Part shown: piece by piece, positions 7,793 to 59,218 of the stretch
Layout: every line of letters begins with the position of its first letter
How positions within the stretch are numbered: the stretch's first letter is position 1
NCBI GenBank assembly: GCA_951406725.2
Contig: OX597824.1
Coordinates: 86,738,001 to 86,802,000, forward strand
Source of the DNA: Octopus vulgaris
Taxonomy: Eukaryota
Reading direction: 5' to 3'
DNA: 64,000 bases
Made by a program: the position numbers and the translations under genes
The notes under the pieces: model-generated
Seen by the model: only the letters and a program-made list of their open reading frames with translations
Database searches by the model: none
What the model was told of the DNA's origin: nothing

Positions 7793-8824
7793 AATCTCTT
7801 GGAAGAAGAAAAAAAACAAATAATGTTAAAAAGCGTCGTAACGAAGCTTACAAATATGAAACAAAATATGGGAAGGCTGTTGTCTAATCTCACAGATGAA
7901 GTTAGAGACATCAACTCCAATGAACTTTATGGCCATCCTAGCTTCAGGGATATTACTCAGGACTGGACAAGGCAAACGTATCCCCAAACGGAAACGTATG
8001 AAGGAAATTACCTGAATGATAATCTTATCAATAACACACCTGCACATACAAATACATTTAATGCTTATCAACAGCCAATTTATTATCCATCGGCTTCCTT
8101 TGAAGCATCCTCTCCTGTAAATGTTTCTGATCAAAAATACGATCAATCTAAAATTTCTTCGAGCTTTAATGGCTTTTATTGCCTTCCTGGATCAAATAAT
8201 CTGGATATCAGTGGAAGTTTCAGTAGCTGCTCTGACATTTCAAGCACGTCTCCCTCCAGTGTTATGTCTGGTTCACAGTATAGTCTTACTAGTTATGATT
8301 CTGCCGGTTCTGAGACTGCTTTTGACTGGAGTGATAACGAGAACTCCCAAACATCCACTTTTGCAAATAACAACACAAATTTTGGTTCGTCATCTTATGT
8401 AAATTACAACATCAATCAGGATGATGTATTTACTGATATATATAACAACATCGACCTTGGTGCACCTGTTGATGTAAGTAATGGTACCAGCTTCAGTAAC
8501 AACATTGACTTTAATGCTTTTCCAAGACTAAACAGCAACATCAACCACGGCGGCACATATACTAATAGAAACGGTGATGGATTTCTTGACAGAATTAGCA
8601 ACTTTAATTTTGGGACTGAAACTGTAAATAACATGCAGTTAGACAACACTGATTTCATTTTAGGGAAATCTAATTCCTGCAATCAAAACATGGACAAAAT
8701 ATTACATCTACAACCCGTTGATGGATCCCCCACTCTGAATGAAAACATTTTATATAAGATTATGGATAAATATCCACCCCAATGTGTAAATACTCATAAC
8801 AATGATCTGCCTTACTTAAAATGA
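7793..8824 (+). CDS. ATF3/Fos-like bZIP, zipper and long S/N-rich acidic C-terminal exon
   Basis: Acceptor tttcag at 7792, in frame with the 341-aa ORF 7799-8824; heptad L/L/M residues near the start. Confidence 0.88.
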   Translation, partial: NLLEEEKKQIMLKSVVTKLTNMKQNMGRLLSNLTDEVRDINSNELYGHPSFRDITQDWTRQTYPQTETYEGNYLNDNLINNTPAHTNTFNAYQQPIYYPSASFEASSPVNVSDQKYDQSKISSSFNGFYCLPGSNNLDISGSFSSCSDISSTSPSSVMSGSQYSLTSYDSAGSETAFDWSDNENSQTSTFANNNTNFGSSSYVNYNINQDDVFTDIYNNIDLGAPVDVSNGTSFSNNIDFNAFPRLNSNINHGGTYTNRNGDGFLDRISNFNFGTETVNNMQLDNTDFILGKSNSCNQNMDKILHLQPVDGSPTLNENILYKIMDKYPPQCVNTHNNDLPYLK

Positions 8825-11071: not shown

Positions 11072-13697
11072 CATATATATAATATTCAATATCTGTACAC
11101 CACACCTAACACTCTATATATATATATATACATACACATGCAAGTATAAGCATGCATACATATACAAACATATATACATACATATGCATACTCACGCACG
11201 CACACACATATATATCTAGCATGCAAAAATTGGTTTTAAAAACTCACTTTTGCATAAATGTAAAAAAACAAAAATACAAAGGATGTCCTTGGGATTTGAA
11301 CCCTCATCTCTAGTGGGCATGTCAGATGTTCTGCCATTAGACTAAAGTGATCTTTATAATTTCCTCATTCATTTTAGGAACTTCATTCTTATCAGCAAGA
11401 ATTGTATGTTTTTGATGTAAGAATATTATAAATTTTTATTAGTGAATCTTGAAGCATATAAAGCTACAAATAATAACATAAGCAACATTTGACTTTTTAC
11501 TATCCAAGAGGGTTTCCCACCCAATATTCACATGCTATTGTAGCAGAGCTACATAATTTAGGCATAGTATTAAGTGATTCGATCTGCTCAGCAAATGAAT
11601 ATATCAATGAGGCAGCTAGCCTCGCTTTGATACAGTAGCCTCGTTCTGAGCTCCTCTGTAGAAACAGCCTGAATTCCTGCCAGGCTTTGATCAAAGACAC
11701 ATGTCTTCTCTGCAGCTCCACACACAATCTCCCACGTGCGACTCACAAGTCTATTCACCTCGACACAAGATATCATCATCATCATCATGACCACCGTTTA
11801 ATGTCCGCTTTCCATGCTAGCATGGGTTGGACGGTTTGACTGAGGGCTGGCGAACCAGATGGCTGCACCAGGCTCCAATCTTGATCTGGCAGAGTTTCTA
11901 CAGCTGGATGCCCTTTCTAATGCCAACCACTCCAAGAGTGTAGTGGGTGCTTTTAGGTGCCACCGGCAAGGGGGCCAAGTCAGGCGGTACTGGCAACGAC
12001 CTCGCTCAAATTTTTTTTACGGATATATGGTTTGTAAACGAAGATATTTTATCACACACACACATTCTCAAAACGACTGTTCTCATTACACACATGGATA
12101 AAATCAAAACTTTCTTTCTATGTAAACACACACGTTTTTGTATCATACTACAGGCTTCCACCACAAAGGGTTTTAGATGGATAGGTGGTATTCCCTCTAA
12201 TGTGACTCTGCTCAGAAGGCTGTAATGTTATCGTGGTAGGAAACCGGTAAAGAAATACATGGATCAAATGTGATAACTTTAAATACGTTTATTGTGGCTA
12301 CACGTATATATACACAACTGAATGACAAATGGAAGTGGTTGATGTACATTTATTCATATATCTTCATGCATCTGCGTGGGTTGTATGCTAGCTGTTAACC
12401 CTGGTGAGGAAAGCTCACGAACAGCGATATATCAGAACTAGTGCAGTGTGTTGGTGCTGTATAGATGTTGTTGATGACGTTGGTTTGTTTCTTTCTTTGT
12501 TGAGTGAAGCGGTCTTCACCCCAGAGCTCGCAAGATCGCGCCTCAGGATTGTCTGTAGTGGGAGAAGTCCGAAACGTGGTCCTTTGCTATCCGTAAGACC
12601 CACAGAAGAGAAAGCAGGTCAACCCCCGACACCGAGAGCATCGACGGATGGATTAATGCGCATCCAGGCTCAGCGGTTGTGTAGGAAGTCGGGGACAAGA
12701 AACAGGAAGAAAGAGTGAGAGAAAGATGGGGCGAAAGAGTACAACAGGTGTTGCCACCACCCCTGCCGGAGCCTTGTGGAGCTTTGTGGAGCTTTAGGTG
12801 TTTTCGCTCAATAAACACACACAACGCCCGGTCTGGGAATCGAAACTGCGATCCTCCGACCGCGAGTCCGCTGCCCTAACCACTGGGCCATTGTGCCTCC
12901 ACGATGTCGTTGGTGAGAGACATCACGAAGATGAAGAGGCTCAAATGATGTTTGGGACAGACTGTCTTACGTGACTTATTTGAGGGTTGTGATTGGTTGG
13001 GTTTCATACTAGCGTGCGATAGAGTAAGAGGCAAATTGCACCAACCCCAACCACTCAGAGTGGTAAACACAGTGGGTTCCAAAACAGCACCCAAAGGTTA
13101 GCAGTTACCTGCTACGTTCGTATGTATTTGTATATTATAGAGAGAGGAAGGTCAATAGAGTTCGCAACAAGGTAAACACAGAATAAACAATATATTTATA
13201 CACAAAAATGTCTTATGGTGATTCGTGAATTGTCGAGTTGTCACGGAAACAGCCGAGTGTTTGTTTTAGATTTTGTCGAGTTATATCGAAGGATTGCTTC
13301 AATCGTCCCTTATTACAAACAAGCGGGACTCAGTACACTGTAAAAATAAAAAGGTTCCGACTGCTGTCAAGCACGCTGTTACCGAATAAATTGGTAAATG
13401 GCACGTTAAACCCAATCATTGCCTCGAGTCCTTATGCGCAGGGTGCGGAAAAGAAATACTAGTCCTTCCGGTTGAGTGTGAGACTTACAAAAATAGAGGT
13501 GAAAATATTTAAATTTGTCATGTTCGTTATAAAGGTGAACTTACACATTTGCACGTGAGCTTATGATGCGCCGATTGTGAAGAAATACCTGATGTGAGAT
13601 TATATGTAGTTCTGACGCACCTTTGTACTATAAACGTCAGAACTGTAAAATCTGTGCTGTGAAAAAGCTGTGTTAGTCCTGGTTTCTGTCGAAATTA

Positions 13698-14645
13698 ATG
13701 ATGTTATTGACAATTTTGGCAGCTGTGGGCACAACAATAATTTTACCCTTGTCGATTCGCTACTTTATGAAAGGAGCCACCTGTACCAGCCCTGTTAAAC
13801 TGGAAGGCAAAACAGTTATTATTACTGGAGGTAACTGTGGAATCGGATTCGAAACAGCCCGTAATTTATTACTACGAGGGGCCCGAGTGATCCTCGCATG
13901 TCGGGACTTAAATAAGGCGAAATCGGCTGCGGAACAATTAAGCGAATTAGGTTCAGGTGTTGTACTTGTTGAAAAACTTGATCTCTCAAGCTTCGATTCC
14001 ATTCGGACATTCTGCAAGAATATTAAGCAACATATCACCTCTTTGGATATCCTTATAAACAATGCGGGTGTTTATTTCCACCCGTATGCTGAGACAGAAG
14101 ATGGCCTGGAAATGCATATGGGCGTCAATTACTTTGGTCCCTTCCTTTTGACACATCTTCTCCTGGAGTTATTAAAGAAGTCTGATTCACCCCGCGTCGT
14201 TTTTGTCGGGAGTGGGATTTACAAATACGGGAAAATCGATTTTAACAACACGATTAGAAAAACATTTTTCCAAAAACACAATGCCTACGGCGACAGTAAG
14301 TTAGCCTGTGCTTTATTTTGCCGTGAATTTAGCAATCGAATGTCAGACACTGATATTAACATATACTATGTTCACCCAGGACCAGTGAACACAGATATAG
14401 GAAGAAACCTTTTTAATTCATTTCTTTGGAAACCAATGCACTATCTTTTCAAATTATTTTCAAAGACTTGCGTAGAGGGTTGTCAAACTGTTGTATATTG
14501 CGCTGTTAGTGAAGAGACGAAAGACCAATCTGGTTACTACTACAGTGAATGCCAGAGAGACGAATGGGCAAATCAAGCCCTGGATAAACAACTTGCTGTA
14601 AAGTTGTGGAACTTCAGCGAAAAAGTTACGGGATTAATCGAATGA
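13698..14645 (+). CDS. Retinol dehydrogenase 11/12/14-like SDR, copy 1 (intronless)
   Basis: 315-aa ORF with N-terminal hydrophobic anchor, TGGNCGIG, LDLS, NNAG, catalytic YGDSK and HPG. Confidence 0.95.
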   Translation: MMLLTILAAVGTTIILPLSIRYFMKGATCTSPVKLEGKTVIITGGNCGIGFETARNLLLRGARVILACRDLNKAKSAAEQLSELGSGVVLVEKLDLSSFDSIRTFCKNIKQHITSLDILINNAGVYFHPYAETEDGLEMHMGVNYFGPFLLTHLLLELLKKSDSPRVVFVGSGIYKYGKIDFNNTIRKTFFQKHNAYGDSKLACALFCREFSNRMSDTDINIYYVHPGPVNTDIGRNLFNSFLWKPMHYLFKLFSKTCVEGCQTVVYCAVSEETKDQSGYYYSECQRDEWANQALDKQLAVKLWNFSEKVTGLIE

Positions 14646-15822
14646 AAATTGTTCTCTCACCAAATTATAAATATAAGGCTACCCTTCTTTTCTGTGGAAT
14701 AATTAAAAAAAATAATAATAACGAAAGAAGAAAGACTCTCGGATGCAATTAATGTAAAAAAAATCTTGTTCGTCACAAAATTAAAGAAATTCTATGAGAG
14801 TTTCGTTTTGAAGAAATACTGATTCGATGTTGGAAGGTGTGAAGGATCTTTTATTTTATAGAATAGAACCGTTGCAGGGAGCGAAGAAAGTATCTTGTAT
14901 TTTAATGTATGTTTCGTTTTCTGAATCAAATCGACGGCAGATTAATTATTGATGTTACATGACAATTAAGAAAATATTTATTTGTTTGTTTAATATCGAT
15001 CATGATCAGTGATATTGGAATATCGAGGACTGGCTTTAGTGCTTGAATGAAAACATTTTTCGAACCAAATATTTGACAGTCCGTGTTGAAGTAATTAATG
15101 TTCGTGCGAATGTGTTGAGAATCTCAACATCTGTAGCTTTCTGGTTGTTTTCGTATCGTCGTGTTTTTAAGAAATCGGAATTTTCTCTTTTTAATTAGTT
15201 TAAAGAAAAGCATTCCTGCCGGGACCAAAAACCTAATCCTAATAACTCTTTACCAATAATAAGTTTTTCAGTAATTGTATTAAATGCAGTTAATTACTGC
15301 CGCATGAAGAAAAGGCAAAACTAAATGTGACCGTCAAGTATTTGTTTTGAAAAGTTTTCGTGTTGGATTTTAAATCCAGGATTCCCTAATTATTTAATGA
15401 GGGTCAGCGTAAGAAGATCACTGATCGCAAATTGTAACACAAATATATAGTTTAATGAACATCATTTTCAAAACTTTCTCACACGCCTTTCTTGAAGTGA
15501 GGTACAACAGTTTCCAGGCGTACCTACACAAATGTACCTCGCCCCATCGACTTTGTTTTCACATAACTTTCTCCTGTACGTATGTGTTCGTCACAGCATT
15601 TTCTTTTTTTACGTTAAATTCCGATATAATCGTAATTTACAGCATCTGAAAGTTATTTATACAAATCTTCATTAAAAAAATATCGTGTCTATATGGTTTT
15701 TATATCATATCTATATCGTTGCATAATCATGTCTGTATTGGTAAGATGGAATTCAAAATCGGATTCAGTAACTTAAATTTCCAATGTTCCAGTGCAAAAA
15801 TACAAAATCAATTAGCTTAGAA

Positions 15823-15987
15823 GGTACTATTTAAGAAGAGTGGTCCCGGTGCGCGCACTCGCGCAATCGCACTAGCTAGTCGTGACTACCTAGCAAAGTA
15901 AATAAAATACAAAATTAATAATTTTTTTACACAAAGTAAATAAAACACAAAAACACAAAGTAAAGATCGACTAGTCACGACTAGCTA
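15823..15987. mobile_element. Truncated MITE (mirror of 25991-26189)
   Basis: Has only one TIR (GGTACTATTTAAGAAGAGTGGTCCCGGTGCGCGC) and is fused to the next element. Confidence 0.85.
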
Positions 15988-16551
15988 TTATGTCCACCCA
16001 TAATTATGACCCTAGTATCGATCTATTGCATTTCAATCTGTTTTAGGGTTGGGGTTGGGTTAGGGGTGGGAGAAGGGTATCTTTTTTTCTTCAGTAATGT
16101 AAATAAACTCAATCTGTTTCTTAAACGAATATATAATATGTAATGTGTGTATCTGTGCAACAGAGAGGGAAATTAAAACTGCTTATGTTGTGAACTTAGA
16201 ATCTGTGTTTATTGATAAAAGTTTAATAATGATAATCTTTTATTCATACGAACGTAACTGATATGAAACATGTCATAAATAACAGTGACACATTGATATG
16301 ATACCGCCAGAAAATGTTGTTGACACACTACAGCAGAAATTGTATTCACCTCAATAGATGTCATTGATTGGTTGAAATTGCTGAAATGCAAGAAATTAAA
16401 CAACAAATAGCTTACAAACTACAGAATTTTCTCAAGAAAGCCAAGAAGAAAAGATGTTTTATGTAACACATTCTACCAGTATACGAAGTTTAAAAGTGTT
16501 TAGTTACAAAGAAATTATTTTTAAAATCTGCCGGTCAAAGTGAAAAGATCC
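15988..16551. mobile_element. Left-truncated GGATC…GATCC MITE, inverted relative to 16707-17113
   Basis: Reverse-complement match to 16707-17113, for example ccataattatgaccctagtatcgatc. Confidence 0.8.
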
Positions 16552-16706
16552 AATACTTTTTTTTTTTAAACGATGGTATTTTCTAAGTGCATTTTATATA
16601 CCGGAAAATGTGGGTTTTTTTTTATCTATTATCTTTTCTTTGTATCTGACTGAGGTCATACTGGGGCACTGCCTTGAAGAATTTTAGCTGAACGAATTGA
16701 CTCCAG

Positions 16707-17113
16707 GGATCTTTTCTGTTTGACTGGCAGTTTTTTTAAACAATTCCCACGTAACTAAACACTTTAAAACTTCGTATACTGATAGAATGTGTTTATAAAA
16801 CATCTTTTTCTCTTGGCTTTATTGAGAAAATTCTATAGTTTGTAAGATATTTTTTGTTTTTTTTCTGCAATTTCAACCAATCAGTGACGTCTATTGAGGT
16901 GAAAACATTCTGTGCTGTATGAATATGTCCCTCGTTTAAGAAACAGATTGGGTTTATTTACATTTCTGAAGAAAAAAGATACCCTTCCCCCCACCCCTAA
17001 CCCTAACCCCAAAACAGATTGAAATGCAATAGATCGATACTAGGGTCATAATTATGGGTGACAATTTCATATGACACCGCTAGAAAAAACTGCCATTCAA
17101 ACCGCAATGATCC
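16707..17113. mobile_element. MITE with GG termini and 8-bp TSD (Merlin-like)
   Basis: GGATC…GATCC termini with TSD gactccag/aactccag; inserted in a SINE. Superfamily is inferred from termini and TSD length. Confidence 0.75.
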
Positions 17114-17673
17114 AACTCCAGTACTTACGTTTTAAGCATGGCACTTATTTTATTGGTTTCTATTGTCAAACGCTAAGTCACTAGTATGTAAACTAACCAA
17201 CATAAGTTGTCAACCGGTGTGGGAGACAAATACAGCCACAAGGACTCACACACACATATATATGACAGGCTTCTTTCGGAATTCCTATTATCAAGTCTAT
17301 TCACAAGGTTTCAGTTGACCCAAGGCTATAGTAGAGTACACTTGCCCAAGGTGCCACACAGTAAGACTGGACCCGGCACCTATACCAACATAACTAAATC
17401 TCGCAAACTATTTTGTCAAACAGCACGTTCCTATAACATATATATTATCATTCAAATGAAAATAAAAATGCTTCTTTTTTTGTGGGGGTGTATTTTTGTA
17501 TTTTGACCTCTTTTCCCACAGTCCTAGTTAAAACCCAAATTGATAAAAATCTTTTCAGAAAGGTCCTCTTGAGGGCTTTTATTATCTTGTATTCTTATCA
17601 TCCTGTCACCTCAGCTTCGCTTATGTATATAAGTTTACATATATATGTATGTATATATTTATATATGTATGTT

Positions 17674-17706
<33 letters not shown>

Positions 17707-19087
17707 GTGCGTTATACTAATACATCTGTTTGTTTTGTACAGCACCTGTCTTCGTCTTTTGTTTTTTTCGTAAACTCTCCCTATATATGTATGTGTGTGT
17801 GTGTGCGTACCTGAAAATACAAGTTTCAACAAATTGACTTCAGGACTTATTTTTTAAAGATAAGTACTTATCGTATTGGTCTCTTTGCTAAACTACTAAG
17901 TTACGCTGGCATAAACACACTGACACTGTTTACCAAGCGGTGATGGGGACAAACATAGTCACTAAGACACACACATATGACGGGCTTCCTTCAGTTGTTG
18001 TCTAACAAATCCTCTCACAAGGCTTTGGTCAACCCAAAACTATAGCAGAAAACACTTGTCCAAGGTGCCATGCAGTGGGACTGAACCCAGAACTGTTTGG
18101 TCAGGAAGCAAACTTCTTAATACACAGCCATGCCAGCGCTTATGTTTTATGTTAAATTCTTGCATTTTTCACAATTTTACTTTTTCTACAACATTACATA
18201 TTATGATAAGACAAGTACTTTCATGTTTTCTGCAATCTTCAGGTTCATTTAGTAGCAGTATTAAACAACAGCTATGTTTCACAATTGATAACTGTAGTAG
18301 AATGCTTGAAATTCTCCTTTAAATACTTTCCAGCAGGCTCCAGCAAGTTGTACCATAAATCTTACGAACTGTATTTTAATCAACCAAAGTACTGCTTAGA
18401 TGTCGCAACTAAGTGGGTGTGATAGCATTCTATTCATAAAAACATTTTGACCAATCAGCATACAGCGTAGCAATTATGCCAACCCAGTTGACGTTTACAG
18501 CACTTACTCATAGAAATACTTTAGTCCTCTATAAAGGATTTGGTGATATTCAGATGTTGAAGAACACTTGATACTGTAAACGCTATCCTTGGTTTCAGCG
18601 AATTTAATATTACTATTACTGTTCAAATTTCTAAGTTCAAATTCTGCTGAGGGCGACTTTACCTTTCATCTTTAATAATGGAAGGCAAGATTTACGATAT
18701 TGGAAGAATATCGTCCCCTTCCATCATTCATTTTGTTCTTTATGTAGTTCAGGCTTCCGGCAGGCAAAGAGAAAAGACTTCAAAGTCACTATATATATAT
18801 ATAGGTTCAGCAAAATTTAGATTCAGATGAATATGGTACTTAATTTAAAGGCACCAGAATTTGGTATGGTATTATCCATATAAATCAAATGGGGTGATTA
18901 TAATCAAAATAAGCAACAAGGATATCCAAGGTAGTGTAGTACAATCGTTTCATGCTACTTCATTTTATTAAACAATGCAAGTATTACATCAGTTTTAAAA
19001 TGTAGAGCAATCTTCAGTCACATATAGAATTTTTTAATTAAATAGACAATGTACATTTTTATACTTATTCTGTTTGCCATATATATA

Positions 19088-20369
19088 CGAGGGGCGTTCA
19101 ATATGTAATGCCCCTGACCCACTTCCCATTGCAGTAGAGCAACGAAACTTGGCACAGTTATTAATCTTTTTCTACATAGGAACCACCCAGAGTTACGCAT
19201 TTCTCCCATCGTTTGATGCAGCTCTGGAGACCGCTTTTGTAGAAGACCCCAGCTTGGTCCTCCAACCACGACGTGACTTCAGAAATCAAGGCTGCATCAT
19301 CTGGGAAACGCTTTCCTCTCAAAAACAACTTCATGGCTGGGAAGAGGTGAAAATCAGAGGGTGCAAGGTCAGGAGAGTAGGGGGGATGGAGGAGGAGTTC
19401 ATAGCCGCACGCCTGTGCTTCTGATCTGGCGACACGCGAGTTGTGGACCGGAGTGTTGGCCTGCAGGTAGAGGATGCCTTTGCTGATCTTGCCCCGCCTC
19501 TTGATTTTGATAGCTTCTCTTAATTTCCTCAAAAGTGAAGCATAATAGGCTCCTGTAATTGTGGTACCCTTTGCCAGGAAATCTGTCATCACTACTCCGT
19601 CCTGGTCTCAGAAGATTGTGAGCATGACCTTGCCAGCGGAGGGCTGCACCCTTGCTTCTTTGGAGGAGGTGAATCATGGTGTTTCCACTGCATTGACTGG
19701 GCTTTGCTCTCTGGATCATAGTGATGGACGCAGGTTTCATCCTGTGTAGTCAGTCTTTTGAAAAATTTTGACTCATCTTCTTGGCACATCTCCAAATTCA
19801 TCCTCGAGCACTCGACGCATTCTTTGCTTCTGGAAAGGTGTGAGCAACCTGGGAATCCATCTGGCAGATACCTTTTGCATATGCAAATGGTTATGAATGA
19901 TAGTTTCCACAGACCCGGTACTAATCTTGACCTCATGAGCTATTTGGCGAATAGTTATGCGTTGATCTTCCAAAATGGCAGCCTCAACTTGACGGACAGA
20001 TGCCTCATCAATGGCAGAGGTGGGACGACCAGATCTGGGTGTTGTTTCCGACCATGTTTGAATTCACGATGCTAGTGTTTTACAAGGCCATATGATGGGG
20101 CATCATCACCATGAGTTACTTTCATTTCATCAAAAGTCTCCAGTCGTGTGCGTCCTTTCAAATATAAAAACCGGATCACTGCTCGACACTCAACAGGCTC
20201 CATTTCACACTTGACTCAGTTCAAACACCTGTAAATCAGACACCACAATTAGTTCAGAGCTGTAATTTGCCACTTAATCTGTAGAGATATAAATAATTGC
20301 ACATGCAAACTTTCAGCTAGATCAAACAATTGCAAGTGGGTCAGGGGCATTACTTATTGAACGTCCCTC

Positions 20370-20370
<1 letters not shown>
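19088..20370 (-). mobile_element. Near full-length mariner transposon with pseudogenised transposase (~20203→19161)
   Basis: TA-flanked ~37-bp TIRs CGAGGG(G/A)CGTTCAATA(T/A)GTAATGCCCCTGACCCACTT. Motifs WIPRLL, TQDET and YSPDLAPSDFHLF. Frameshifts, a stop and the second catalytic D→A (QANT). Confidence 0.95.
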
Positions 20371-20412
<42 letters not shown>

Positions 20413-20413
<1 letters not shown>

Positions 20414-22299
20414 TAGCTGGTGTACCTGGCAATTCCTGGGTGTAAAGATGTTCTATTGAAATGCCTTATTACTCTGATATAAGAAAGCAATTTCATTATA
20501 ACTGCCACAAGAGGTGTATTTTCTGTCATAGAAAAGTACAAAAAACTGTCAGTTGGAGGAGGGAGAGATTGCTGGAGGTTGGCAAGAGAGGTTTCGGAGG
20601 TTGGCAAGAAAGTACTCTGACTCGTGGCATTTTGAAGGTGAACTGTATGAAGGCTAATTTATCAAAGATAATATATACATGTAGTATATATGTATATAAA
20701 TATATGAATGAAATATTTAAGGTTTAAGAATGAAATGAAGAAAGTGCAGTAATAACATTCACAGTTACAGATGGTCACTCTCAGTAACTGCCTTTAGCTT
20801 ACAGAGTTCTTGCTTTTATAACTATCGAAAAGCAGTCAGAAATATAGACATATTGTTGAGAACAAATGATCTCGTTGGAGGTCTGCTACCTCCATTCCAG
20901 CCCCTGGTGGCTTAGAAGAGATTAGACGGGTCAAGTGGCAAAGACATTATTCTGTTTAGCGAAGGCATCTGGGAAATGTATAACTGCTGTCATTCACAGA
21001 AAAACTATTGTTTTACCGTGAGAAAAGCGCTGTTGAAGTGTGAAGTGAAATTTGGCAATCGAGGGTCGAATCCACGCTATGCCTGCATGAAGCCACTACA
21101 AATACATTGTAGAATAAAAAAAATTTATCTACTGTCATAGGAAAAGTGGAACTGTAAAAAATGCAGAATTATCGGAGTAATGGGCATTCAAAAAAGTATT
21201 ATGTATAGAAATGTATGAATGAAGTCTTTAAGGTTTAAGATTCAAATCAAGACAGTGCAATAATAATGTTTAGCAGTTCAAAACTGAGTAGTGAAATGCA
21301 GAATTAGGTTGGCTGATCATGAGACTCAAATATTGATCACTTCACTAAAAACTGCAGGTGGTATGGGTTGTTTAAATAAAATATTAGTAATATGTAGTAG
21401 ATAGAAGGATCCATTGGAGGGGTCCTATTATTGATTTTTTTTTTCAACAATCTAAGTATGTCACAAGGTTTCCAGACATGAGTTCTATTCATGTGTCAAA
21501 TAAAGTATAAAAGTGATATTGTCTGCAAAAATTAGAAATTGGACGCACAAAAAAAATCAATATTCAAAGTAATCGAACGTAAACAATGAAACCTGTAAAA
21601 TATTTCTAAATTCGATGGCTCAATTAGTTTCATGAAAATGTTGTATGAACTGTAAATAAAAATAAATGTTATAATTTGCAAAATAAGTATAACTGACACA
21701 GGGTGTCCCAACTGAATGTGGTGTGGAAGTTTGGTTTCGTTTTTAAAGAATTTTAGGCATTCAAAGTTTGAGTTCATTGTATTGGGACACGTTAAGTACA
21801 TTCTGGAATCAAAAATTTATGTAGTGTCATCAAAAAATTTTAACTGGAAAAATGCAGAATTATTGGAGTTACAGGCATTGATAGTGTACACACACGAAGA
21901 AAATGCAATAAGGCTTAGCAGTTGAAAACTGTGAGTAGTAAAATTCAGAATTTGGTGCGCTGATCGTGAGAATCAAATATTGATCACTTCACTAAAAACT
22001 GTAAGTGGAGGTACTATGGGTTATTTCCCTTGAGAGTTATAAAAAAGAATATTGTGCAGGTGCTGTGGGCTGTTTCCCTTGGGTGTTTAAAATAAAAATC
22101 TAGTTATATGAGGTAGATATATGATCCCTTCCAGGGGCCGTATTATCAATTTTTTCAACAATCTATGTACGTCATGAGGTTTCCAGACACAAGTTCTACT
22201 CATGTGTCAAGTTTCATGAAAATCAATAAAACAATGTAGAAGGAGTTAGCTAACAATACCACAAACAAACACACACCGATTTTCCACATATGTAGTAGA
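20413..22299 (-). mobile_element. Non-autonomous Helitron
   Basis: Minus strand begins TC(TACTAC) at 22299 and ends with a GC hairpin plus CTAG at 20413, in A|T context; contains internal repeats. Confidence 0.7.
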
Positions 22300-22589
22300 T
22301 ATGTATATATAAATTCCACCCCCTCACTCTATATACCTCTCTTTCTATTGGTTTTTTTCTAATTTTTTATATATATATATATAATATTGTGTGAAATTTG
22401 ATTTAGTATTTCTAAATTGAATTTTTTCCCTCTAAGTTAGGAGTAATATTCCCTCAAATAATTATTCTATATATATATATATATATATATGGCATTAAGA
22501 AAGGTACCCAGTTTTAGAAACTAAGCCAAAATCAGAGTAGAACCTGCCTAACCAATACTAGCATGGAAAACAAATGTTAAAGGATAATG

Positions 22590-22642
<53 letters not shown>

Positions 22643-23059
22643 TGCACCACCAGATGCTCCTGAACCAGTTGTTGAGTGTCCCACCCAAGAGGAATCGATA
22701 TTAGATGTGTCGAAACAACTGTCATGATTAATAATAAATTCTCGTATATTCCACCTTCTGTCTTTCATTTGTTTTATATATATCATCATCATCATCATCA
22801 TCATCGTTTAACGTCTGCTTTCCATGCTGGCATGGATTGGACGGTTCAACTGGAGTCTGGGAAGCCAGAAGGCTGCACCAGGCCTAGTCTGATCTGGCAG
22901 TGTTTATACAGCTGGATGCCCTTCCTAACGCCAACCACTCCGTGAGTGTAGTGGGTGCTTTTTATGTGCCACCGGCACAGGTGCCAGACGAGGCTGGCAA
23001 GCGGCCACGATCAGATGGTGCTTTTTATGTGCCACCGGCACAATACATATATATATATA

Positions 23060-24300
23060 TATATTATGTGTTTCCACTCAGTTTCTGTCTACCAAATTCA
23101 TTCACAAGGCATTGAACAGCCCATGGTTATAGTAGTAGATATTTGCCCCAAGTGCCATACAGTGGGACTGAAACCGAGACCATCTGGTTGGAAAGCAAGC
23201 CTCTTAACCCCACAGCTACACTTGTGCCTAAATGGTGAGATGAAAAGAATAAATAAAAACTATTGAAATGTATTATTTATTGAAGAAATTTTAATAGGTA
23301 ATATAAATAAAAATAAATATATAAGTTAGATAATTTGTGTAGTGTGATGGAGGAAAAGGACAACAGAAAAAGAAACAAAGGGGAGAAAGAAACACAAAAG
23401 GCCTTACCTGTTGACCGAGGCAGAATCAGCGGTCACTCGCATGAATTAAACACGTCTTGTCTCTCTGCCGTCTCTGCTCGAACTGACCACACGTGCTTCC
23501 TGCCCACACATGCACCCATGGCTGTGCTGCCGGCCCCTGCAGTCTTAACTTCCATCTACCTCATCTGCAATCCCCTCCACCAACACCACATAGCTCATCA
23601 CAGCCCATAACACCACTAACACAATAATTTGTTAAATAAATATAAATTTTTCCTTGACTATTTTACATTTATTTTCAGATTTGTATTATTATAATATAAT
23701 CTGATTGTAACTTGAAGATATTGGAGTACTTTTCACGAAATGGTTTTGTGTACTTGTTGAATAGTCTCAGCTGCTGTTGTTGTAGTTGTTATTGTGGTAT
23801 GACCACCTTTAATCAACCCTGATTGAGCTGACCAGAGGTAGGTAAGTCATCAGATGGGCAAATGAGAACGACTCACAGACCTCTTGTTTCACACACTCCA
23901 TGTCCTCCATGAACTTCCTGACCATCATGGACTCAGGTCTTCTACTACACCCATGGACTGACCAAAGTGTCGCGAGTAGATTTTGTAAATAGAAAGTGAA
24001 AGTAGCTTGTTATTGTGTGCATGTGTGTGTGTGTGTGCACAGGTATGAGATACTTTCGCTTTGCCTTAGATTCATGATAGTTGTAAACGAATGTCGCCAT
24101 CATACAAGCAGTGTCCTCCAGTACCAGTTACGCACTGGGGTTGACGTAATCGACTTAATCTGTTTTTCTGTCCTTGTTTGTCACCTGTGTTTAGCCCCTT
24201 ATGGGTATTAAAGAAACAGGTGTAATATTACCTTACTTGGGCACAGGTGAGGGTTGGCAACAGGAAGACCATTCAGCTATAGAAAATCTGCCTCAACAGA
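23060..24300 (-). repeat. Inverted copy A' of 9255-10365
   Basis: Reverse-complement match including shared SINE remnants, with one 288-bp insertion and a deletion at ~24120. Confidence 0.9.
23336..23623. mobile_element. Solo LTR-like insertion
   Basis: TGT…ACA termini with imperfect terminal inverted repeats and TSD ATAATT(TG). Absent from the paralogous site at ~10100-10115. Confidence 0.75.
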
Positions 24301-25774
24301 TTCTGTAGTTGTTATTGTTGTATGACTACCTTTAATCAACAGTGATTGAGCTGACCAGAGGCAGGTAAGTTGTCTGTTGCACAAATGGGAGTGACTTGCA
24401 GCTGTTGTGCCAGTCCCACAAGCAGACAAATGCATTAGGAGTGGATTGTGTAGACAGAAATTAAAAGAATCTTGTTAATGTGTGTGAGATCTAGTCACCT
24501 TGACTTAAATCCATGTGACAGTTGTAAACAGATGTCACCTATTTCTTTACTACCCACAAGGAGCTAAACACAGAGAAGACAAACAAGGACAGACACACAG
24601 ATTAAGTCGAGTATATCGACCCCAATGTGTAACTGGTACTTATTTAATCGACCCGGAAAGGATGAAAGGCAAAGTCGACCTCAGCGGAATTTGAACTCAG
24701 AACGTAACGCAAGACGAGATACGGCTACGCATTTCGCCCGGCATGCTAACAGTTCTGCCAGCTCGCCGCCTTTGTAAACAGATGTCACCATCATACAAGT
24801 AGTATGCTCCAATTGCAGTCTTCCAATCACTTCAGGCTTTCGGCAGGTGAAGAGAGAAGACTTCAAGTACAAGTGCTGTTCACAACTGGTTTATTTACAG
24901 GATTTACAGGATAGTGTAGTGTGCTGCCCTCAGCCACCATCTTTGGCTGTGTGTGTTGTGTACGTAGTTCCGTTAGTGCGGGTGCATTGCCTCTGGAGAT
25001 AGACAGGTGCAGCCAGTGGTGGTGTTCACAAAGTGGTGCCAAAAAAGAGAGAGATTTGAATCAGGTTTTCCCCCGGGCAAAGTGCTAAGCCGTATTTCGT
25101 CTGCCGTTACGTTCTGGGTTCAAATTCTGCCGAGGTCGACTTTGCCTTTCATCCTTTCGGGGTCGATAAATTAAGTACCAGTTATGCACTGGGGTAGATA
25201 TACCCGACTTAATCCGTTTGTCTGTCCTTGTTTGTCCCCTCTGTGTTTAGCCCCTTGTGGGTAGTAAAGAAATAGGTATTTAGTCTGCCATTACGTTCTG
25301 AGTTCAAACTCTGCTGAAGTCGACTTTGCCTTTCATCCTTCCGGGGTCGATAAATTAAGTACCAGTTATGCACTGGGGTCGATGTAATCGACTTAATCCC
25401 TTTGTCTGTCCTTGCTTGTCCCCTCTATGTTTAGCCCCTTATGGACAATAAAGAATTAAGAAACTGTGTGGAAGCCTATCATATATGTGTGTGTGTGCAA
25501 GTGTATTTGTTTCTGTTCCTCCTGCCCATCTCTTGACAACCAGTGTTGGTTTGTTTACGTCTCCATAACTTTACAATATGGGGAAAAGACTGATAGAATA
25601 AGTACCAGGCACAAAAAAAAATAAATAAGTATGTAGGTTGATTTGTTCAACTCTATCCTTGAGGGTGGTGCCCCAGCATGGCCAGAGTTCAATGACTCAC
25701 TCAAGTAAAAGATGAAAGGTATGCCTTTCATAAAAAAAAAACAATTAGAAAATACCATCGTTTAAAAAAAAGTA

Positions 25775-26320
25775 TTTTATTGACAGAATAAAAAGTCGAT
25801 TGGAATTTCTAAAATAATTGATTTTGAATTTTTGCATTGGAACATAGCAAATTTAAGTTACTGAATCCGATTTTGAATTCCATCATAACAATACAGACAT
25901 GATATGCAACGATATAGATATGATATAAGAACCATAAAAAAAAAATGGATTTTATTGGCAGAATAAAAAGTCGATTGAAATTTCTAAGGTAGTACTATTT
26001 AAGAAGAGTGGTCCCGGTGCGCGCACTCGCGCATCCGCGATAGCTAGTCGATCTTTACTTTGTGTTTTTGTGTTTTATTTACTTTGTGTAAAAAAATTAT
26101 TAATTTTGTATTTTATTTACTTTGCTAGGTAGTCACGACTAGCTAGCGCGATTGCGCGCGCACCGGGACCACTCTTCTTAAATAGTACCTTCTAAGCTAA
26201 TTGATTTTGTATTTTTGCACTGGAACATTGTAAATTTAAGTTACTGAATCCGATTTTGAATTCCATCTTACCAATACAGACATGATTATGCAACGATATA
26301 GATATGATATAAAAACCATA
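25775..26320. repeat. ~180-bp tandem duplication whose second unit carries a MITE
   Basis: cagaataaaaagtcgatt…gatatagatatgatata occurs twice. Confidence 0.8.
25991..26189. mobile_element. Complete ~200-bp MITE (Merlin-like)
   Basis: ~33-bp TIRs with TSD ttctaaggt/ttctaagct; the empty site is visible in the tandem copy at ~25806. Confidence 0.85.
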
Positions 26321-27365
26321 TAGACACGATATTTTTTTAATGAAGATTTGTATAAATAATTTTCAGATGCTGTAAATTACGATTATATCGGAATTTAACA
26401 TAAAAAAAGAAAATGCTGTGACGAACACATACGTACAGGAGAAAGTTATGTGGAAACAAAGTCGATGGGGCGAGGTACATTTGTGTAGGTACGCCTGGAA
26501 ACTGTTGAACCTCACTTAAAGAAAGTCCTGTGAGAAAGTTTTGAAAATGATGTTCATTAAACCATATATTTGTGTTACAATTTGTAATCAGTGATCTTCT
26601 TACGCTGACCCTAATTAAATAATTAGGGAATCCTGGATTTAAAATCCAACACGAAAACTTTTCAAAACAAATACTTGACGGTCACATTTAGTTTTGCCTT
26701 TTCTTCATGCGGCAGAATTTAACTGCATATAATACAATTACTGAAAAACTTATTATTGGTAAAGAGTGATTAGGATTAGGTTTTTTGGTCTCGGCAGAAA
26801 TGGTTTTCTTTATACTAATTAAAAAGAGAAAATTCCGATTTCTTAAAAACACGACGATACGAAAACAACCAGAAAGCTACAGATGTTGAGATTCTCAACA
26901 CATTCGCACGAACATTAATTACTTCCAACACGGACTGTCAAATATTTGGTTTGAAAAATGTTTTCATTCAAGCAGTAAAGCCAGTCCTCGATATTCCAAT
27001 ATCAATGATCATGATCGATATTAAACAAACAAATAAATACTTTCTTAATTGTCATGTAACATCAATAATTAATCTGCCGTCGATTTCATTCAGAAAACGA
27101 AACATACATTAAAATACAAGATACTTTCTTCGCTCCCTGCAACGGTTCGATTCTATAAAATAAACGATCCTTCACACCTTCCAACATCGAATCAGTATTT
27201 CTTTAAAACGAAACTCTCATAGAATTTCTTTAATTTTGCGACGAACAAGATTTTGTTACATTAATTGCATCCGAGAGTCTTTCTTCTTTCGTTATTATTA
27301 TTATATAATTATTCCACAGAAAAGAAGGGTAGCCTTATATTTATAATTTGGTGAGAGAACAATTT

Positions 27366-28313
27366 TCATTCGATTAATCCCGTAACTTTTTCGCTGAAGT
27401 TCCACAACTTTACAGCGAGTTGTTTATCCAGGGCTTGATTTGCCCATTCGTCTCTCTGGCATTCACTGTAGTAGCAACCAGATTGGTCTTTCGTCTCTTC
27501 ACTTACAGCACAATATACAACAGTTTGACAACCTTCTTGGCAATTCTTGAAAAGTAATTTGAAAGCAGAGACCTTTTGTATCAGAGGATATGAATTCAAA
27601 ATGTTCCTACTTATATCTGTGTTTACTATTCCTGGGTGAACATAGTATATGTTGATATTAGTGTCTGACATTCGATTGCTAAATTCACGGCAAAATAAAG
27701 CACATGCTAACTTACTGTCACAGTAGGCACCGTGTTGATGGAAAAACTCCGGTTTATTCATGTTGTCAAAATCGATTTTCCCGTATTTGTAAATCCCACT
27801 CCCGACAAAAACGACGCGGGGTGAATCAGACTTCTTTAATAACTCCAGTAGAAGATGTGTCAAAAGGAAGGGACCAAAATAATTGACGCCCATATGCATT
27901 TCCAGGCCATCTTCTGTCTCAGCATACGGGTGGAAATAAACACCCGCATTGTTTATAAGGATATCCAAAGAGGTGATATGTTGCTTAATATTCTTGCAGA
28001 ATGTCCGAATGGAATCGAAGCTTGAGAGATCAAGTTTTTCAACAAGTACAACACCTGAACCTAATTCGCTTAATTGTTCTGCAGCCGATGTCGCCTTATT
28101 TAAGTCCCGACATGCGAGGATCACTCGGGCCCCTCGTAGTAATAAATTACGGGCTGTTTCGAATCCGATTCCACAGTTACCTCCAGTAATAATAACTGTT
28201 TTGCCTTCCAGTTTAACAGGGCTGGTACAGGTGGCTCCTTTCATATAATAGCGAATCGACAAAGGTAAAATGATTATTATGGGTACTACAACTGCCAAAA
28301 TTGTCAACAACAT
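27366..28313 (-). CDS. Retinol dehydrogenase 11/12/14-like SDR, copy 2 (intronless)
   Basis: 315-aa ORF with TGGNCGIG, NNAG, YCDSK and HPG; inverted paralog of 13698-14645. Confidence 0.95.
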   Translation of the reverse strand: MLLTILAVVVPIIIILPLSIRYYMKGATCTSPVKLEGKTVIITGGNCGIGFETARNLLLRGARVILACRDLNKATSAAEQLSELGSGVVLVEKLDLSSFDSIRTFCKNIKQHITSLDILINNAGVYFHPYAETEDGLEMHMGVNYFGPFLLTHLLLELLKKSDSPRVVFVGSGIYKYGKIDFDNMNKPEFFHQHGAYCDSKLACALFCREFSNRMSDTNINIYYVHPGIVNTDISRNILNSYPLIQKVSAFKLLFKNCQEGCQTVVYCAVSEETKDQSGCYYSECQRDEWANQALDKQLAVKLWNFSEKVTGLIE

Positions 28314-29674
28314 CTTTAATATACTGAGATTTCGACAGAAACCAGGATTAACACAGCTTTTTCACAGCACAGCTTTCACAGTTCTGACGTTTATTGTACA
28401 AAGGTGCGTCAGAACTACATATCATCCCACAACATGTAATTCGACAAGGTCGGCGCATCGTAAGCTCACGTGCCTAATGATTAAGTTCATCTTTATAACG
28501 AACAAGACAAATTATATTTTCATTTCTATTTTTCTGAGTCACGGCTGGTAAGACAAGCATTTCTTTTCAGCAGCCTGAGCATAAAAACTGGAGGCGATGT
28601 TTGAGTTTAACGTACCATTTCAGTTTCTTGTAAGCTCTCTTGACAGCAGTCGGAGATTTTTTTTAAGGTGTCCTGCGGCCCGCTTTTTTGTGATTAGGGA
28701 CAATTCAAGTTTGTTGTCGTTGTTATTATTTAACATGAGAAAGTTTACCTGTATTAGAATAAAATTGTTTATCTTTCGTTATATGTACCCCATGTTTTGT
28801 GTTATTATATCCCCTCTCTATTCAGGCTTTATGCCTATATAATAAAGATTTCTAGAATAAAATTATGTTGCTCTTCATCATTATCATCATCATTTTACGT
28901 CTGCTTTTCATACTTGCGTGGCTTGTTGAAATATTCTATATCTAATAATCCTGTTATTAGGGTGTCGCTTAAAAAAAAGTATTTCGGTTATAGATGGATG
29001 AATGCAGAACAGCAAAAACTAAGATAAATGACCGATCTATTTATATAACTAGGTATTTTAATTTAAAAAAATATAACTTGAAAATACAAAATATACTTGT
29101 AAAACTGGGATAATGAAATGAAGTTTTAAAATCTTATAAACCTTCGAGACACCATGAAACAATACTTTTTTAGACTAAGGGATCTTGAAGCACATAAAAC
29201 TATAAATAATAGCATGTAAATAAATATTGGGTTGGGAAACCTTCGAGGATAGAAAAAAAAGTCAAAGGCTGCTTATGCTTTAATTTATAGCTTTATGTGC
29301 TTCGAGATTCACTATTCCAAAAAGGAATTATTTCACATTTTCTTGAGAGTTTATAGTATTCTTATGATATCAAAAACATAGAATTCTTGCTGCTAAGAAT
29401 GAAGTTTCTAAAATAAATCAGGAAATTAAAATGATTGCTTTAGTCCAATGGTAGAACATCTGGTATTCCTACAAGAGATGAGAGTTCATATGCATCCTTT
29501 GAAATATTTTTTCCCCCTTTTCCAAATGGGAGTTTTTCAAACCAGTTCTTACATGCTATCATTGTAACGCTTTATCTGCTTCAAGTTCTGCTATTCTAAA
29601 AAAATTTTTTAAAGTTATCTTTGCTTTAATGACTTTTTTTGTTATCAAGTTCAAGAAGGCAGCTGTTTATGAAA

Positions 29675-53320: not shown

Positions 53321-53389
53321 CCCTGTTTATTGGCTAGATACTTTTTTTTAAACCAACAGTGTGAAGCGCCTTTGCAGGTTTCATGAAAA

Positions 53390-54858
53390 AAGCACCCATG
53401 CCAGTGGCACATGTAAAGCACCCATGCCAGTGCCACATGTAAAGCACCCATGCCAGTGCCACATGTAAAGCATCCGTGCCAGTGCCACATGTAAAGCACC
53501 CATGCCAGTGACACATGTAAAGCACCCATGCCAGTACCACATGTAAAGCACCCATGCCAGTGCCACATGTAAAGCACCCATGCCAGTGACACATGCAAGG
53601 CACCCTTGCCAGTATCACTTGTAAAGCACCCATGCCAGTGTCACTTGTAAAGCACCCATGCTAGTGCCACATGTAAAGCACTCATGCTAATGCCACATGT
53701 AAAACACCCGTGCCAGTGCCACGTGTAAAGCACCCATGCCAGTGCCACATGTAAAGCACCCATGCCAGTGCCACATGTAAAGCATCCGTGCCAGTGCCAC
53801 ATGTAAAGCACCCATGCCAGTGCCACATGTAAATCACTCATGCCAATTCCACATATAAAGCACCCATGCCAGTGCCACATGTAAATCACTCATGCCAGTG
53901 CCACGTGTAAAGCACCCATGCCAGTCCCACATGTAAAGCACCCATGCCAGTGCCACATGTAAAGCACCCATGCCAGTCCCACATATAAAGCACCCATGCC
54001 AGTGCCACATGTAAATCACTCATGCCAGTGCCACGTGTAAAGCACCCATGCCAGTCCCACATGTAAAGCACCCATGCCAGTGCCACATGTAAAGCACCCA
54101 TGCCAGTGCCACATGTAAAGCACCCATGCCAGTCCCACATGTAAAGCACCCATGCCAGTGCCACATGTAAAGCACTCATGCCAATTCCACGTATAAAGCA
54201 CCCATGCCAGTGCCACATGTAAAGCACCCATGCCAGTTCCACATGTAAATCACCCATGCCAGTTCCACATGTAAATCACCCATGCCAGTTCCACATATAA
54301 AGCACCCATGCCGGTGCCACATGTAAATCACTCATGCCAGTGCCACGTGTAAAGCACTCATGCCAGTGCCACATGTAAAGCACCCATGCCAGTGCCACAT
54401 GTAAAGCACCCATGCCGGTGCCACATGTAAATCACTCATGCCAGTGCCACATGTAAGGCACCCATGCCAGTGCCACATGTAAAGCACCCATGCCAGTGCC
54501 ACATGTAAAGCACCCATGCCAGTGCCACATGTAAATCACTCATGCCAGTGCCACATGTAAGGCACCCATGCCAGTCCCACATGTAAAGCACCCATGCCAG
54601 TGCCACATGTAAGGCACTCATGCCAATTCCACATATAAAGCACCCATGCGAGTGCCACATGTAAAGCATCCATGCCAGTGCCACATGTAAAGCATCCATG
54701 CCAGTGCCACATGTAAAGCACCCATGCGAGTGCCACATGTAAGGCACCCATGCCAGTGCCACATGTAAAGCACTCATGCCAATTCCACATATAAAGCACC
54801 CATGCGAGTGCCACATGTAAAGCACCCATGCGAGTGCCACATGTAAGGCACCCATGCC
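53390..54858. repeat. 26-bp minisatellite (AAAGCACCCATGCCAGTGCCACATGT)n, roughly 55 copies
   Basis: Directly visible; continues into the (GAT)n-family retroposon body at ~54915-55065. Confidence 0.95.
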
Positions 54859-57069: not shown

Positions 57070-57198
57070 TTCCAGTTACTTTGTCCTATTTTTACTGTAA
57101 TTTTTTCCAGTTACTTTGTCCTATTTTTACTGTAATTTTTTCCAGTTACTTTGTCCTATTTTTACTGTAATTGTTTCCAGTTACTTTGTCATGTTGCA
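57070..57198 (+). repeat. 35-bp tandem repeat (4 AG sites), copy of the exon-10 acceptor array
   Basis: TTCCAGTTACTTTGTCCTATTTTTACTGTAATT(T/G)T units. Confidence 0.9.
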
Positions 57199-57438: not shown

Positions 57439-59218
57439 GTAAGTCTCTCTTTTCTCTAGACCCCTGTCTAGGGATCACATTTGAATCCCGGTTAACATTA
57501 AAAATAATCCTTTATTACTGATAGTAAAAAACCTATGAAGTCAAAAAGTAAATGCATAAGGCAGGGAGCTGGCAGAAACGTTTGCATGCCGGGCGAAATG
57601 CTTAGCGGTATTTCGTCTGCCGTTACGTTCTGAGTTCAAATTCCACCGAGGTCGACTTTGCCTTTCATCCTTTCGGGGTCGATAAATTAAGTGCTTGTTA
57701 TGCACTGGAGTTGATATAATCGACTTAATCCGTGTGTTGTCCTTGCTTGTCCTCTCTGTGTTTAGCCCCTTGTGGGTAGTAAAGAAATAAGAAGCAAATG
57801 CATGTCTTGTCATAATCATTGTCATCCCATAATTGCGTGTGGCTGTGTGGGTGAGTGAGAGGTGATTGAGTGATGAGCAAGGATAAGTTGAATCATTAAT
57901 AATTGCAACTACACTATTTATTCACATTTAGTAATAGCTGAGGACTATACTATTGATTTTTTTTTTTTTTTTTAAGTGCCACCTTGACTGGCTTCTGTGC
58001 TGGTGGCACATAAAAAGCACCAATCAATCATGGCCGCTGCCAGCCTCCCCTGGCACCTGTGCTGATGGCACGTAAAAAGCACCCACTACACTCACGGAGT
58101 TGTTGGCATTAGGAAGGGCATCCAGCTGTAGAAACACTGCCAGATCAGATTGGAGCCTGGCGCAGCCTCCTGGTTTCCCAGACCCCGGTCAAACCGTCAA
58201 ACCCATGCTAGCACGGAAAACAGACGTTAAACGATGATGATGATGACCACAGGAGGATTAAAGGCAAAGTAAATTCTGACTGGGTTTAACCCTTCTGTAA
58301 CCATGTTTCTAAAGAAATTCATTCCCCTCCTCTCTGTTAGGAGGGCACAAGCACTTTCTTATACATGTACCCACACAATGAGAACTTCTACTCAATCACA
58401 AGGCTTTGGTAAGCCCAAGGCTATATCAGAGGACACTTGCCCAAGGTGCCATGCAATGGGACTGAACCCAGAACCATGTGGTTGGGAGCATAAATGAGAA
58501 ATGATTTAGTAAAATAACTGACTTATTTATTATTTAGCTGATGTTTGGAACACAATTAACTAAAGATTCTTACAATGGATAGTTATCATTTAAATACAAA
58601 CACTTTAAAATAAGTAGGCGCAGGAGTGGCTGTGTGGTAAGTAGCTTGCTTACCAACTACATCGTTCCAGGTTCAGTCCCACTGTGTGGCACCTTGGGCA
58701 AGTGACTTCTACTATAGCCTCAGGCCAACCAAAGCCTTGTGAGTGGATTTGGTAGACGGAAACTGAAAAGAAGCCCGTCATATATATGGATATATATACA
58801 TGTGTGTGTGTGTTTGTGTCTGTTTGTCCCCCCAACATCGGCTTGACAACCGATGCTGGTGTGTTTACATCCATGAAATGTAGCGGTTCGGCAAAAGAGA
58901 CCGATAGAATAAGTACTAGGCTTACAAAGAATAAGTCCTTGGGTCGATTTGCTCGACTAAAGGTGGTGCTCCAGCATGGCTGCAGTCAAATGACTGAAAC
59001 AAGTAAAAAAAAAATTTTTAAAAAAAAAGGTTTTCTATCATGAAACCAGAGGCATTTTCAGGTGAGTTGGTGCCAAACACATTAAATTTAAAATATAGAA
59101 GGACTCAACTAAATACTGAAGAGCATTCAGTCTGGCGCTCGATTGGTTTTTGGTTGATTCACTGCCCTCAAATATTGTAATATTAATTGTTAATCTAAAT
59201 ATGGTAAACTAAATCTGT

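Follow-up and report, generated by a model that had tools for sequence, protein, structure and literature searches.

The primate red/green opsin genes OPN1LW/OPN1MW and the pair RHD/RHCE are linked duplicates about 30-40 million years (Myr) old, some 10-25 kb apart, in which most of the sequence groups by species and a short coding segment, a divergence peak in the sense of Teshima and Innan, groups by paralog; conversion maintains the likeness of the paralogs outside this peak, which lies at sites under selection (PMC3924837, in excerpt). In the copepod Tigriopus californicus, the enzyme paralogs GOT1p1 and GOT1p2 likewise carry islands of divergence amid conversion, with occasional transfer of a diverged segment (excerpt of PMC3728101), and in octopods gene conversion or concerted evolution has been proposed for tandem duplicates in the Argonauta reflectin and tyrosinase clusters, which the excerpted text of PMC9635652 explains by dosage and in which it describes no protected trans-species islands. 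Here, we describe a pair of intronless genes of the short-chain dehydrogenase/reductase (SDR) family, gene A and gene B, which lie on opposite strands of a 64,000-nucleotide stretch of the Octopus vulgaris genome (the window). Interlocus gene conversion very probably accounts for the similarity of the two copies, and we consider it probable that conversion of a shared core and 3' flank is combined with selection preserving two predicted substrate-pocket segments. The mechanism is textbook, and the octopus pair is a further case of conversion with divergence peaks. It differs from the opsin and RHD pairs in being an inverted, intronless SDR pair with two peaks in one exon, whose function is predicted from homology, and from the copepod paralogs, which were compared among populations (same excerpt), in that the comparison spans species about 34 Myr apart and the islands lie at a predicted substrate lid. 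Within open-licence papers, supplements excluded, those on octopus retinol dehydrogenases, judged by title and start of abstract, do not describe the pair, none of those listed on cephalopod gene conversion concerns this locus, and nothing was found on gene conversion between inverted SDR copies.

An initial annotation of the window had described a convergent gene pair within a large palindrome, with diverged, indel-rich 5' flanks and N-terminal anchors, near-identity over most of the coding sequence (CDS) and the 3' flank, and a sharp identity gradient between these parts. The convergent pair is real: the two copies form one inverted BLASTN block (92.5% identity over 2694 columns, with 158 mismatches and 14 gap openings) that holds two intact 315-residue open reading frames (ORFs) facing inward. 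'Palindrome' is an overstatement for arms of 2678 and 2666 bp that flank an unrelated spacer of 10,069 bp. Sex-chromosome-type palindromes have long arms of about 99.9% identity and a short spacer; we rejected that class for this locus, where the arms measure 2.7 kb at 92.5% identity and the 10-kb spacer is longer than they are. The flanks and anchors are diverged as described, with 55 mismatches at 285 paired sites (19.3%) and seven gap events in 13297-13600, five mismatches in the next 97 sites (13601-13697) and 11 in the first 69 nt of the CDS. Along the rest of the arm, the gradient gives way to a low-high-low-high mosaic: codons 26-181 differ at 4 of 468 nt, codons 182-199 at 16 of 54, codons 200-226 at 3 of 81, codons 227-260 at 27 of 102 and codons 261-315 at 4 of 165, followed by 33 mismatches in 1320 sites and five gap events in the 3' flank (3.1% up to 15623, 0.9% beyond). 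Near-identity thus holds for the 3' flank (2.5%) and fails for 'most of the CDS', as 14243-14505 differs at 47 of 263 sites (17.9%), a divergence equal to that of the 5' flank. The mismatches are far more clustered than expected by chance (sum-of-squared-runs test, 0 of 5000 shuffles), and the densest 100-nt window of the CDS, with 27 mismatches, was reached in none of 5000 shuffles. Two divergence islands, absent from the initial annotation, contain 27 of the 30 amino acid differences beyond codon 25. No GC bias was seen between the arms (21/19, 18/18, 13/9). The E-box sequence GCACGTGAGCTTA, reported earlier as kept in both promoters, is present in both 5' flanks; it is one of seven identical runs of at least 13 nt there. 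When the first 310 columns are shuffled, the mean is 1.8 such runs and the probability of at least one is 0.90, so that its conservation is expected by chance and is no evidence of function, and we rejected it as a conserved element.

The segments of this mosaic have different histories across species. We compared six copies from three species, O. vulgaris, O. sinensis and O. bimaculoides, the latter two as protein sequences only; one partial model (P0123) was excluded from the segment trees and another (P0006) from the island-2 tree. As in the opsin and RHD class, the paralogs are linked: across the 10,069-bp spacer here, on one contig in O. sinensis as A-type and B-type 315-residue proteins with consecutive accessions, and on one contig in O. 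bimaculoides, which carries both island-1 types. The gene A protein is 98% identical to O. sinensis XP_036363109.1, and that of gene B is closest to XP_036363108.1. Codons 17-172 hold 11 variable sites, six of which (45, 59, 71, 79, 132 and 168) group by species and none by paralog, whereas among the 14 variable sites in codons 173-199 four (185, 189, 192 and 193) follow the paralog and none the species (Fisher p=0.005 for the contrast). The trees conflict in the same way. In the core tree, the four O. vulgaris and O. sinensis copies and P0006 form a clade that excludes O. bimaculoides (support 93/90, not starred); in the island-1 tree, the O. bimaculoides protein P0122 joins A of the window and A of O. 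sinensis (99/96, starred). The branch leading to A is long in both island trees. Sequence outside the peaks therefore groups by species (core synonymous divergence, dS, 0.028, compared with the 19% divergence of the 5' flank), and the paralog grouping of island 1 extends across species, as in the opsin and RHD pairs. This bears out the earlier proposal of gene conversion acting on an old duplicate.

O. bimaculoides separated from the vulgaris-sinensis lineage about 34 Myr ago, and O. vulgaris from O. sinensis 2.5 Myr ago (PMC10700109, in excerpt). Because island 1 groups by paralog across the older split, the duplicate likely predates it and has been homogenized since. Synonymous sites differ at 3 of 110 in the core; both the 5' flank, with 55 of 285 sites (p=5e-6), and the synonymous sites of the islands, with 8 of 30 (p=2e-4), are more diverged, and purifying selection alone cannot give such a core. 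Island 2 differs by 2 and 3 residues within each paralog and by 17-18 between paralogs, of 32, in O. vulgaris and O. sinensis, with a single O. bimaculoides version; over the 55 residues of codons 261-315, A and B are separated by a single difference, and each differs from O. bimaculoides at 7-8. Both O. sinensis copies carry C177 and C280, where the outgroups have Y. At 15588, the two arms of the window share a T in place of the G found in contigs of all four public sequencing runs examined, which also speaks for exchange between the arms. At residue 173, B of the window has G, and O. sinensis B and P0006 have V; the B-type states at 173/177 are G/Y in the window, V/Y in P0006, V/C in O. sinensis and G/C in X1, a public sequencing run in which these residues lie at the start of an assembly bubble. 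Among the differences listed, these mixed states, in part taken from unphased contigs, may reflect polymorphism shared between the paralogs. A mobile element resembling a miniature inverted-repeat transposable element (MITE) sits at the equal position in both arms. Its terminal repeats differ at only 4 of 59 sites, which makes it younger than a duplication with 19% divergence should allow (binomial p=0.007) and fits insertion in one arm followed by copying to the other.

Both proteins are classical SDRs, with PF00106 (adh_short) matches of 118.6 and 121.1 bits (cut-off 26.6), the motifs TGxxxGIG and NNAG, S172, Y197xxxK201 and a Rossmann fold; the motifs are near-invariant in the homologue alignment. 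They share adh_short, the S-Y-K residues and a hydrophobic N-terminal helix (residues 2-25 in A) with SDRs of the RDH11-14 and LPOR type. Their best named homologues are called 'retinol dehydrogenase 12/14-like'. In the whole-gene tree, built from 24 rows chosen from the 120 matches listed, the octopod clade stands on a long branch (0.8, Shimodaira-Hasegawa approximate likelihood ratio test (SH-aLRT) 100) among RDH14-like invertebrate SDRs, is only 44-51% identical to non-cephalopod matches, and is tied to no vertebrate RDH. 'RDH' is a name transferred from these matches, and activity on retinol is predicted by name only. An RDH14, not necessarily this gene, is listed as upregulated in the senescent oviducal gland of O. 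maya (PMC8976471, in excerpt).

An AlphaFold2 model of A (pLDDT, predicted local distance difference test, 92.8; 49-row alignment) places island 1 in a loop and the start of a helix just before the catalytic Y197, and island 2 in the loop after the HPG motif and a helix (242-254) whose amphipathic moment is 0.5 in A and 0.2 in B. The closest fold is LPOR (7jk9, template-modelling (TM) score 0.80), and 3rd5 is also similar; phmmer found no close solved structure, its best matches being about 30% identical. In the phmmer alignment to LPOR, position 229 falls opposite the cysteine of the YPGC motif and 247 opposite the alpha-10 glutamine (manual residue count), residues that flank or contact the substrate, alpha-10 forming the membrane-facing wall of the cleft (PMC13297055, in excerpt). 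By this homology, at about 28% identity, island 2 is predicted to be a lid helix of the substrate cleft. The islands are not merely tolerant loops: of the positions that vary across 41 distant homologues, A and B disagree at 18 of 27 within the islands and at 2 of 65 elsewhere (p=1e-10), as against 7 of 27 and 12 of 65 between B of the window and O. bimaculoides B. Nonsynonymous differences in the islands (36 of 126) exceed the 5'-flank level (p=0.04, in windows chosen post hoc).

In the explanation we favour, a break in one arm would be repaired on the template of the other arm 10 kb away. A crossover between inverted copies flips the spacer and deletes no gene, and the arrangement would therefore be safe for conversion. 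Tracts that overwrote island 1 or island 2 would wipe out a functional difference, and selection would remove them, as the divergence-peak model holds for the opsins, and the diverged, mostly unconverted 5' flanks would allow separate regulation. The outcome would be a pair of NADP(H)-dependent reductases anchored in the membrane, alike in cofactor domain and with different predicted preferences for lipophilic aldehydes or retinoids.

An assembly or polishing artefact, in which two haplotypes or a collapsed repeat create the identity, is very improbable, although short reads were used to polish the O. vulgaris reference (PMC10700109, in excerpt), a third B-like model (P0006) lies on another contig, and the arms of the window agree with each other against the other runs at 13630 and at 15588, where both have T and the contigs of all four runs have G. 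We compared the contigs of four public runs (X1, X8, X18 and X19) with arm A. Contig pairs over island 2 differ from A at 1 and 31 sites in X1, 1 and 31 in X8, and 6 and 35 in X18, so that both types occur in three of the four runs, and B of the window differs from A at 31 sites in this region, as do the B-type contigs of X1 and X8. The core is a single contig in X1 and in X8 (2 and 4 differences); A and B thus share contigs over the core in the independent runs and separate into two types at the 5' end in X18 and X19, and all four runs show the 10-bp insertion specific to B at 13693. Since both types occur in independent runs and in the O. sinensis and O. bimaculoides assemblies, the mosaic is biological; the initial annotation had allowed for an artefact of assembly or polishing, and it is both paralog types that the independent contigs carry. 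One could also imagine that the gene was duplicated once, recently, and that strong positive selection then acted on the pocket in one copy or in both, given that the island differences are mainly nonsynonymous (35.5 of 43) and that A has a long branch in both island trees. Against it, the 5' flank (19%) and the synonymous sites of the islands (8 of 30) are old, and the island 1 that A has in common with O. bimaculoides (99/96) contradicts the idea, so that we find it hardly credible.

With conversion real, the islands might still be neutral refuges, fast-evolving loops that passed a divergence threshold and now block heteroduplex formation or tract extension, with no selection on substrate use. 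Conservation across the family is lowest in the islands (mean 0.49-0.53 against 0.72), their dN/dS ratio (nonsynonymous over synonymous divergence) is near 1, the 5' flank is likewise unconverted and arm A stops at a transposable element (TE) insertion; accumulated substitutions, TEs and indels are described as ending conversion elsewhere (PMC3924837, in excerpt). However, the islands span only 48 and 96 nt and are bordered and separated by homogenized DNA (codons 200-226, 3 of 81), equally variable sites outside them have been homogenized (2 of 65), four paralog-specific island-1 residues are kept identical in O. vulgaris and O. bimaculoides, and the edge of island 1 (173, 177) has been shuffled while its centre has not; we regard neutral refuges as unlikely. 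We hold it to be distinctly improbable that the two copies began as old, balanced alleles at one locus, which each lineage, through a recent duplication of its own and without lasting conversion, came to carry as fixed neighbours; balancing selection would have kept the islands, and ordinary recombination between alleles would have mixed the flanks. Cores that group by species and islands shared across species would follow from this as well, the 2.5% divergence of the 3' flank is only about twice the reported O. vulgaris heterozygosity of 1.22% (PMC10700109, in excerpt), and in O. bimaculoides the fused model P0124 implies copies on the same strand, whereas the pair described here is inverted. 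Yet 300 bp of indel-rich 5' flank at 19% divergence would have to be allelic too, parallel duplications would have to capture the same two alleles in two lineages, and the derived C177 and C280, common to both O. sinensis copies after the split from O. vulgaris, would be left unexplained.

Several observations weigh against conversion with selectively preserved islands. The two O. bimaculoides models are identical over their C-terminal half (0 of 116 differences; one model is partial and one fused), and because that species shows one C-terminal version, island 2 can be dated no further back than the O. sinensis split of about 2.5 Myr. The O. bimaculoides island 2 is nearer to B (10 against 14 differences), yet P0122 carries an A-type island 1. 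The comparison covers O. sinensis and O. bimaculoides at the protein level only, and island 1 comprises 16 codons. Core synonymous sites (3 of 110) and the 3' flank (33 of 1320) are equally diverged (Fisher p=0.75), and the 3' flank itself is only mildly heterogeneous (p=0.026). Steady conversion consequently fits no better than one long event in each lineage, and of the 'recent or recurrent' conversion claimed earlier, conversion stands, with recurrence and a few long events fitting alike. In X19, a long contig is of B type, the 5' end occurs in both types and island 2 in the B type only, which, as contigs drop variants, is no evidence that the A type is absent. The sites shared by the window arms (13630, 15588) could stem from cross-mapped polishing reads, and an A>G difference at 14227 in X1 could be RNA editing. 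Over island 2, the LPOR alignment is weak (E 0.005-0.007 for the stretch, about 28% identity overall), and the pLDDT of the islands (76-79) is the lowest within the catalytic domain. Lastly, the islands give dN and dS of 0.36 and 0.48, and of 0.35 and 0.25 (3 and 4.5 synonymous changes). Because dN does not clearly exceed dS, these values do not demonstrate positive selection, and what we infer is maintenance against overwriting.

Run X1 has a high-copy repeat bin at only about 15x the core depth, against 1600-5450x in the other three runs, from which we would guess that it is RNA-like, although none of the listed runs that carry the stretch is recorded as RNA. Its contigs span 13219-15951 and include both island types, which weakly suggests transcription of both genes; since they extend over the non-coding 3' flank, this flank is probably a 1.3-kb 3' untranslated region. 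The sole AATAAA hexamers of the 3' flank (15901 and 15939) lie inside the MITE-like element, and the X1 contig stops at 15951; both genes may take their poly(A) signal from the element.

Gene models at this locus are often broken. A database protein matches A from its third methionine (residue 24) onward, and CAI9730597.1 (O. vulgaris) is a truncated model of B. A donor-like GTAAGT lies inside the YxxxK motif (14294-14299), with a matching site in B, and the models P0125 and P0006 of O. vulgaris and P0123 and P0124 of O. bimaculoides all break there, probably through false splicing by gene predictors; no splice joint at this donor, near codon 199, is among the joints listed for the public-run contigs. 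P0124 (A0A0L8FVH0) is a 504-residue fusion of a B-type N-terminal half with a full A-type gene. P0006 (CAI9732554.1) is a third, B-type O. vulgaris model on another contig (84,742,434 bp), whose N-terminus and V173 are closer to O. sinensis B than those of the window B are; it may be a haplotig, a misplaced allele or a real third copy. Core-to-promoter depth ratios of 1.9, 1.7 and 1.6 in X8, X18 and X19 hint at two copies and not three, depths being no measure of copy number. A sequence search with short fragments of B residues 165-275 gave one candidate and no matches, and a search with Argonauta residues 150-314 returned, from 210 candidates, four proteins already known and no further cephalopod orthologs.

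The features of the locus are collected in Table 1. Gene B lacks the first ATG of A, having AAG instead, and carries a 3-bp insertion in the anchor (28280-28316); its 5' contigs in X18 and X19 have 10 gap letters, compared with 13 in the window. The repeat preceding the arm-B MITE-like element is partially duplicated in tandem at 25760-25990 (period about 383 bp, 92% over 97 nt). Elsewhere in the window, an N/S-rich ORF of 333 residues (7823-8824, + strand; no Pfam or Atlas match) is perhaps a large exon of a neighbouring gene, and there are minisatellites at 53389-54858 (26-bp unit, 56.5 copies), 59218-59604 and 57070-57190 (35-bp unit, 11 and 3.5 copies).

Table 1. Coordinates of the inverted SDR pair and associated elements, numbered from the first letter of the window.
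Feature	Position	Strand	Description
Arm A of inverted duplication	13297..15974	+	2678 bp, BLASTN block
Arm B of inverted duplication	26044..28709	-	2666 bp, BLASTN block
Spacer between arms	15975..26043	.	10,069 bp, repeat-rich, unrelated to arms
Gene A	13698..14645	+	Intact intronless ORF, 315 aa, classical SDR, RDH11-14-like
Gene B	27366..28313	-	Intact intronless ORF, 315 aa, paralog 89% identical to A
5' flank of A	13297..13697	+	19.3% diverged from B in 13297-13600, 5.2% in 13601-13697
5' flank of B	28314..28709	-	10-bp insertion relative to A
E-box core sequence GCACGTGAGCTTA	13551..13563; 28461-28473	+; -	Conservation not above chance
Homogenized Rossmann core of A, codons 26-181	13773..14240	+	4/468 nt differ, dS 0.028
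Homogenized Rossmann core, B partner	27771-28238	-	Pairs with 13773..14240
Divergence island 1 in A, codons 183-198	14244..14291	+	16 nt, 10 aa differences
Divergence island 1 in B	27720..27767	-	Coordinates from codon register
Divergence island 2 in A, codons 229-260	14382..14477	+	27 nt, 17 aa differences
Divergence island 2 in B	27534..27629	-	B-type contigs in X1, X8, X18, X19
3' flank of A	14646..15974	+	2.5% diverged from B
3' flank of B	26044..27365	-	BLASTN block
MITE-like element, inner end of arm A	15824..15987	+	High-copy, far terminal repeat absent
Same MITE-like element, complete, arm B	25992..26188	-	33-bp perfect terminal inverted repeat; 55/59 extended
Foldback element, directly behind arm A	15995..17060	.	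Long inverted arms; homology stops here
Decayed mariner-type element in spacer	about 19095-20376		Terminal inverted repeats; PF01359, PF13358 below/near cut-off

The pair offers a clean and compact invertebrate case of conversion with divergence peaks, with two sharp peaks in one exon and three annotated species. It also calls for caution, as whole-gene trees misdate this duplication by joining A with B (SH-aLRT 97) and annotation pipelines truncate or fuse these genes. For the family, the specificity determinants of an RDH11-14-type SDR are narrowed to about 27 residues. A bolder possibility, which we think rather doubtful, is that the islands are separately inherited specificity cassettes, two pocket designs kept for more than 34 Myr and occasionally recombined by conversion. 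If so, P0122, with its A-type island 1 and B-like island 2, would be a natural chimera, evolution would already have mapped the specificity residues to those positions, and the pair would represent an octopus-specific split of an RDH14-like reductase into two enzymes selective for retinoids or lipid aldehydes.

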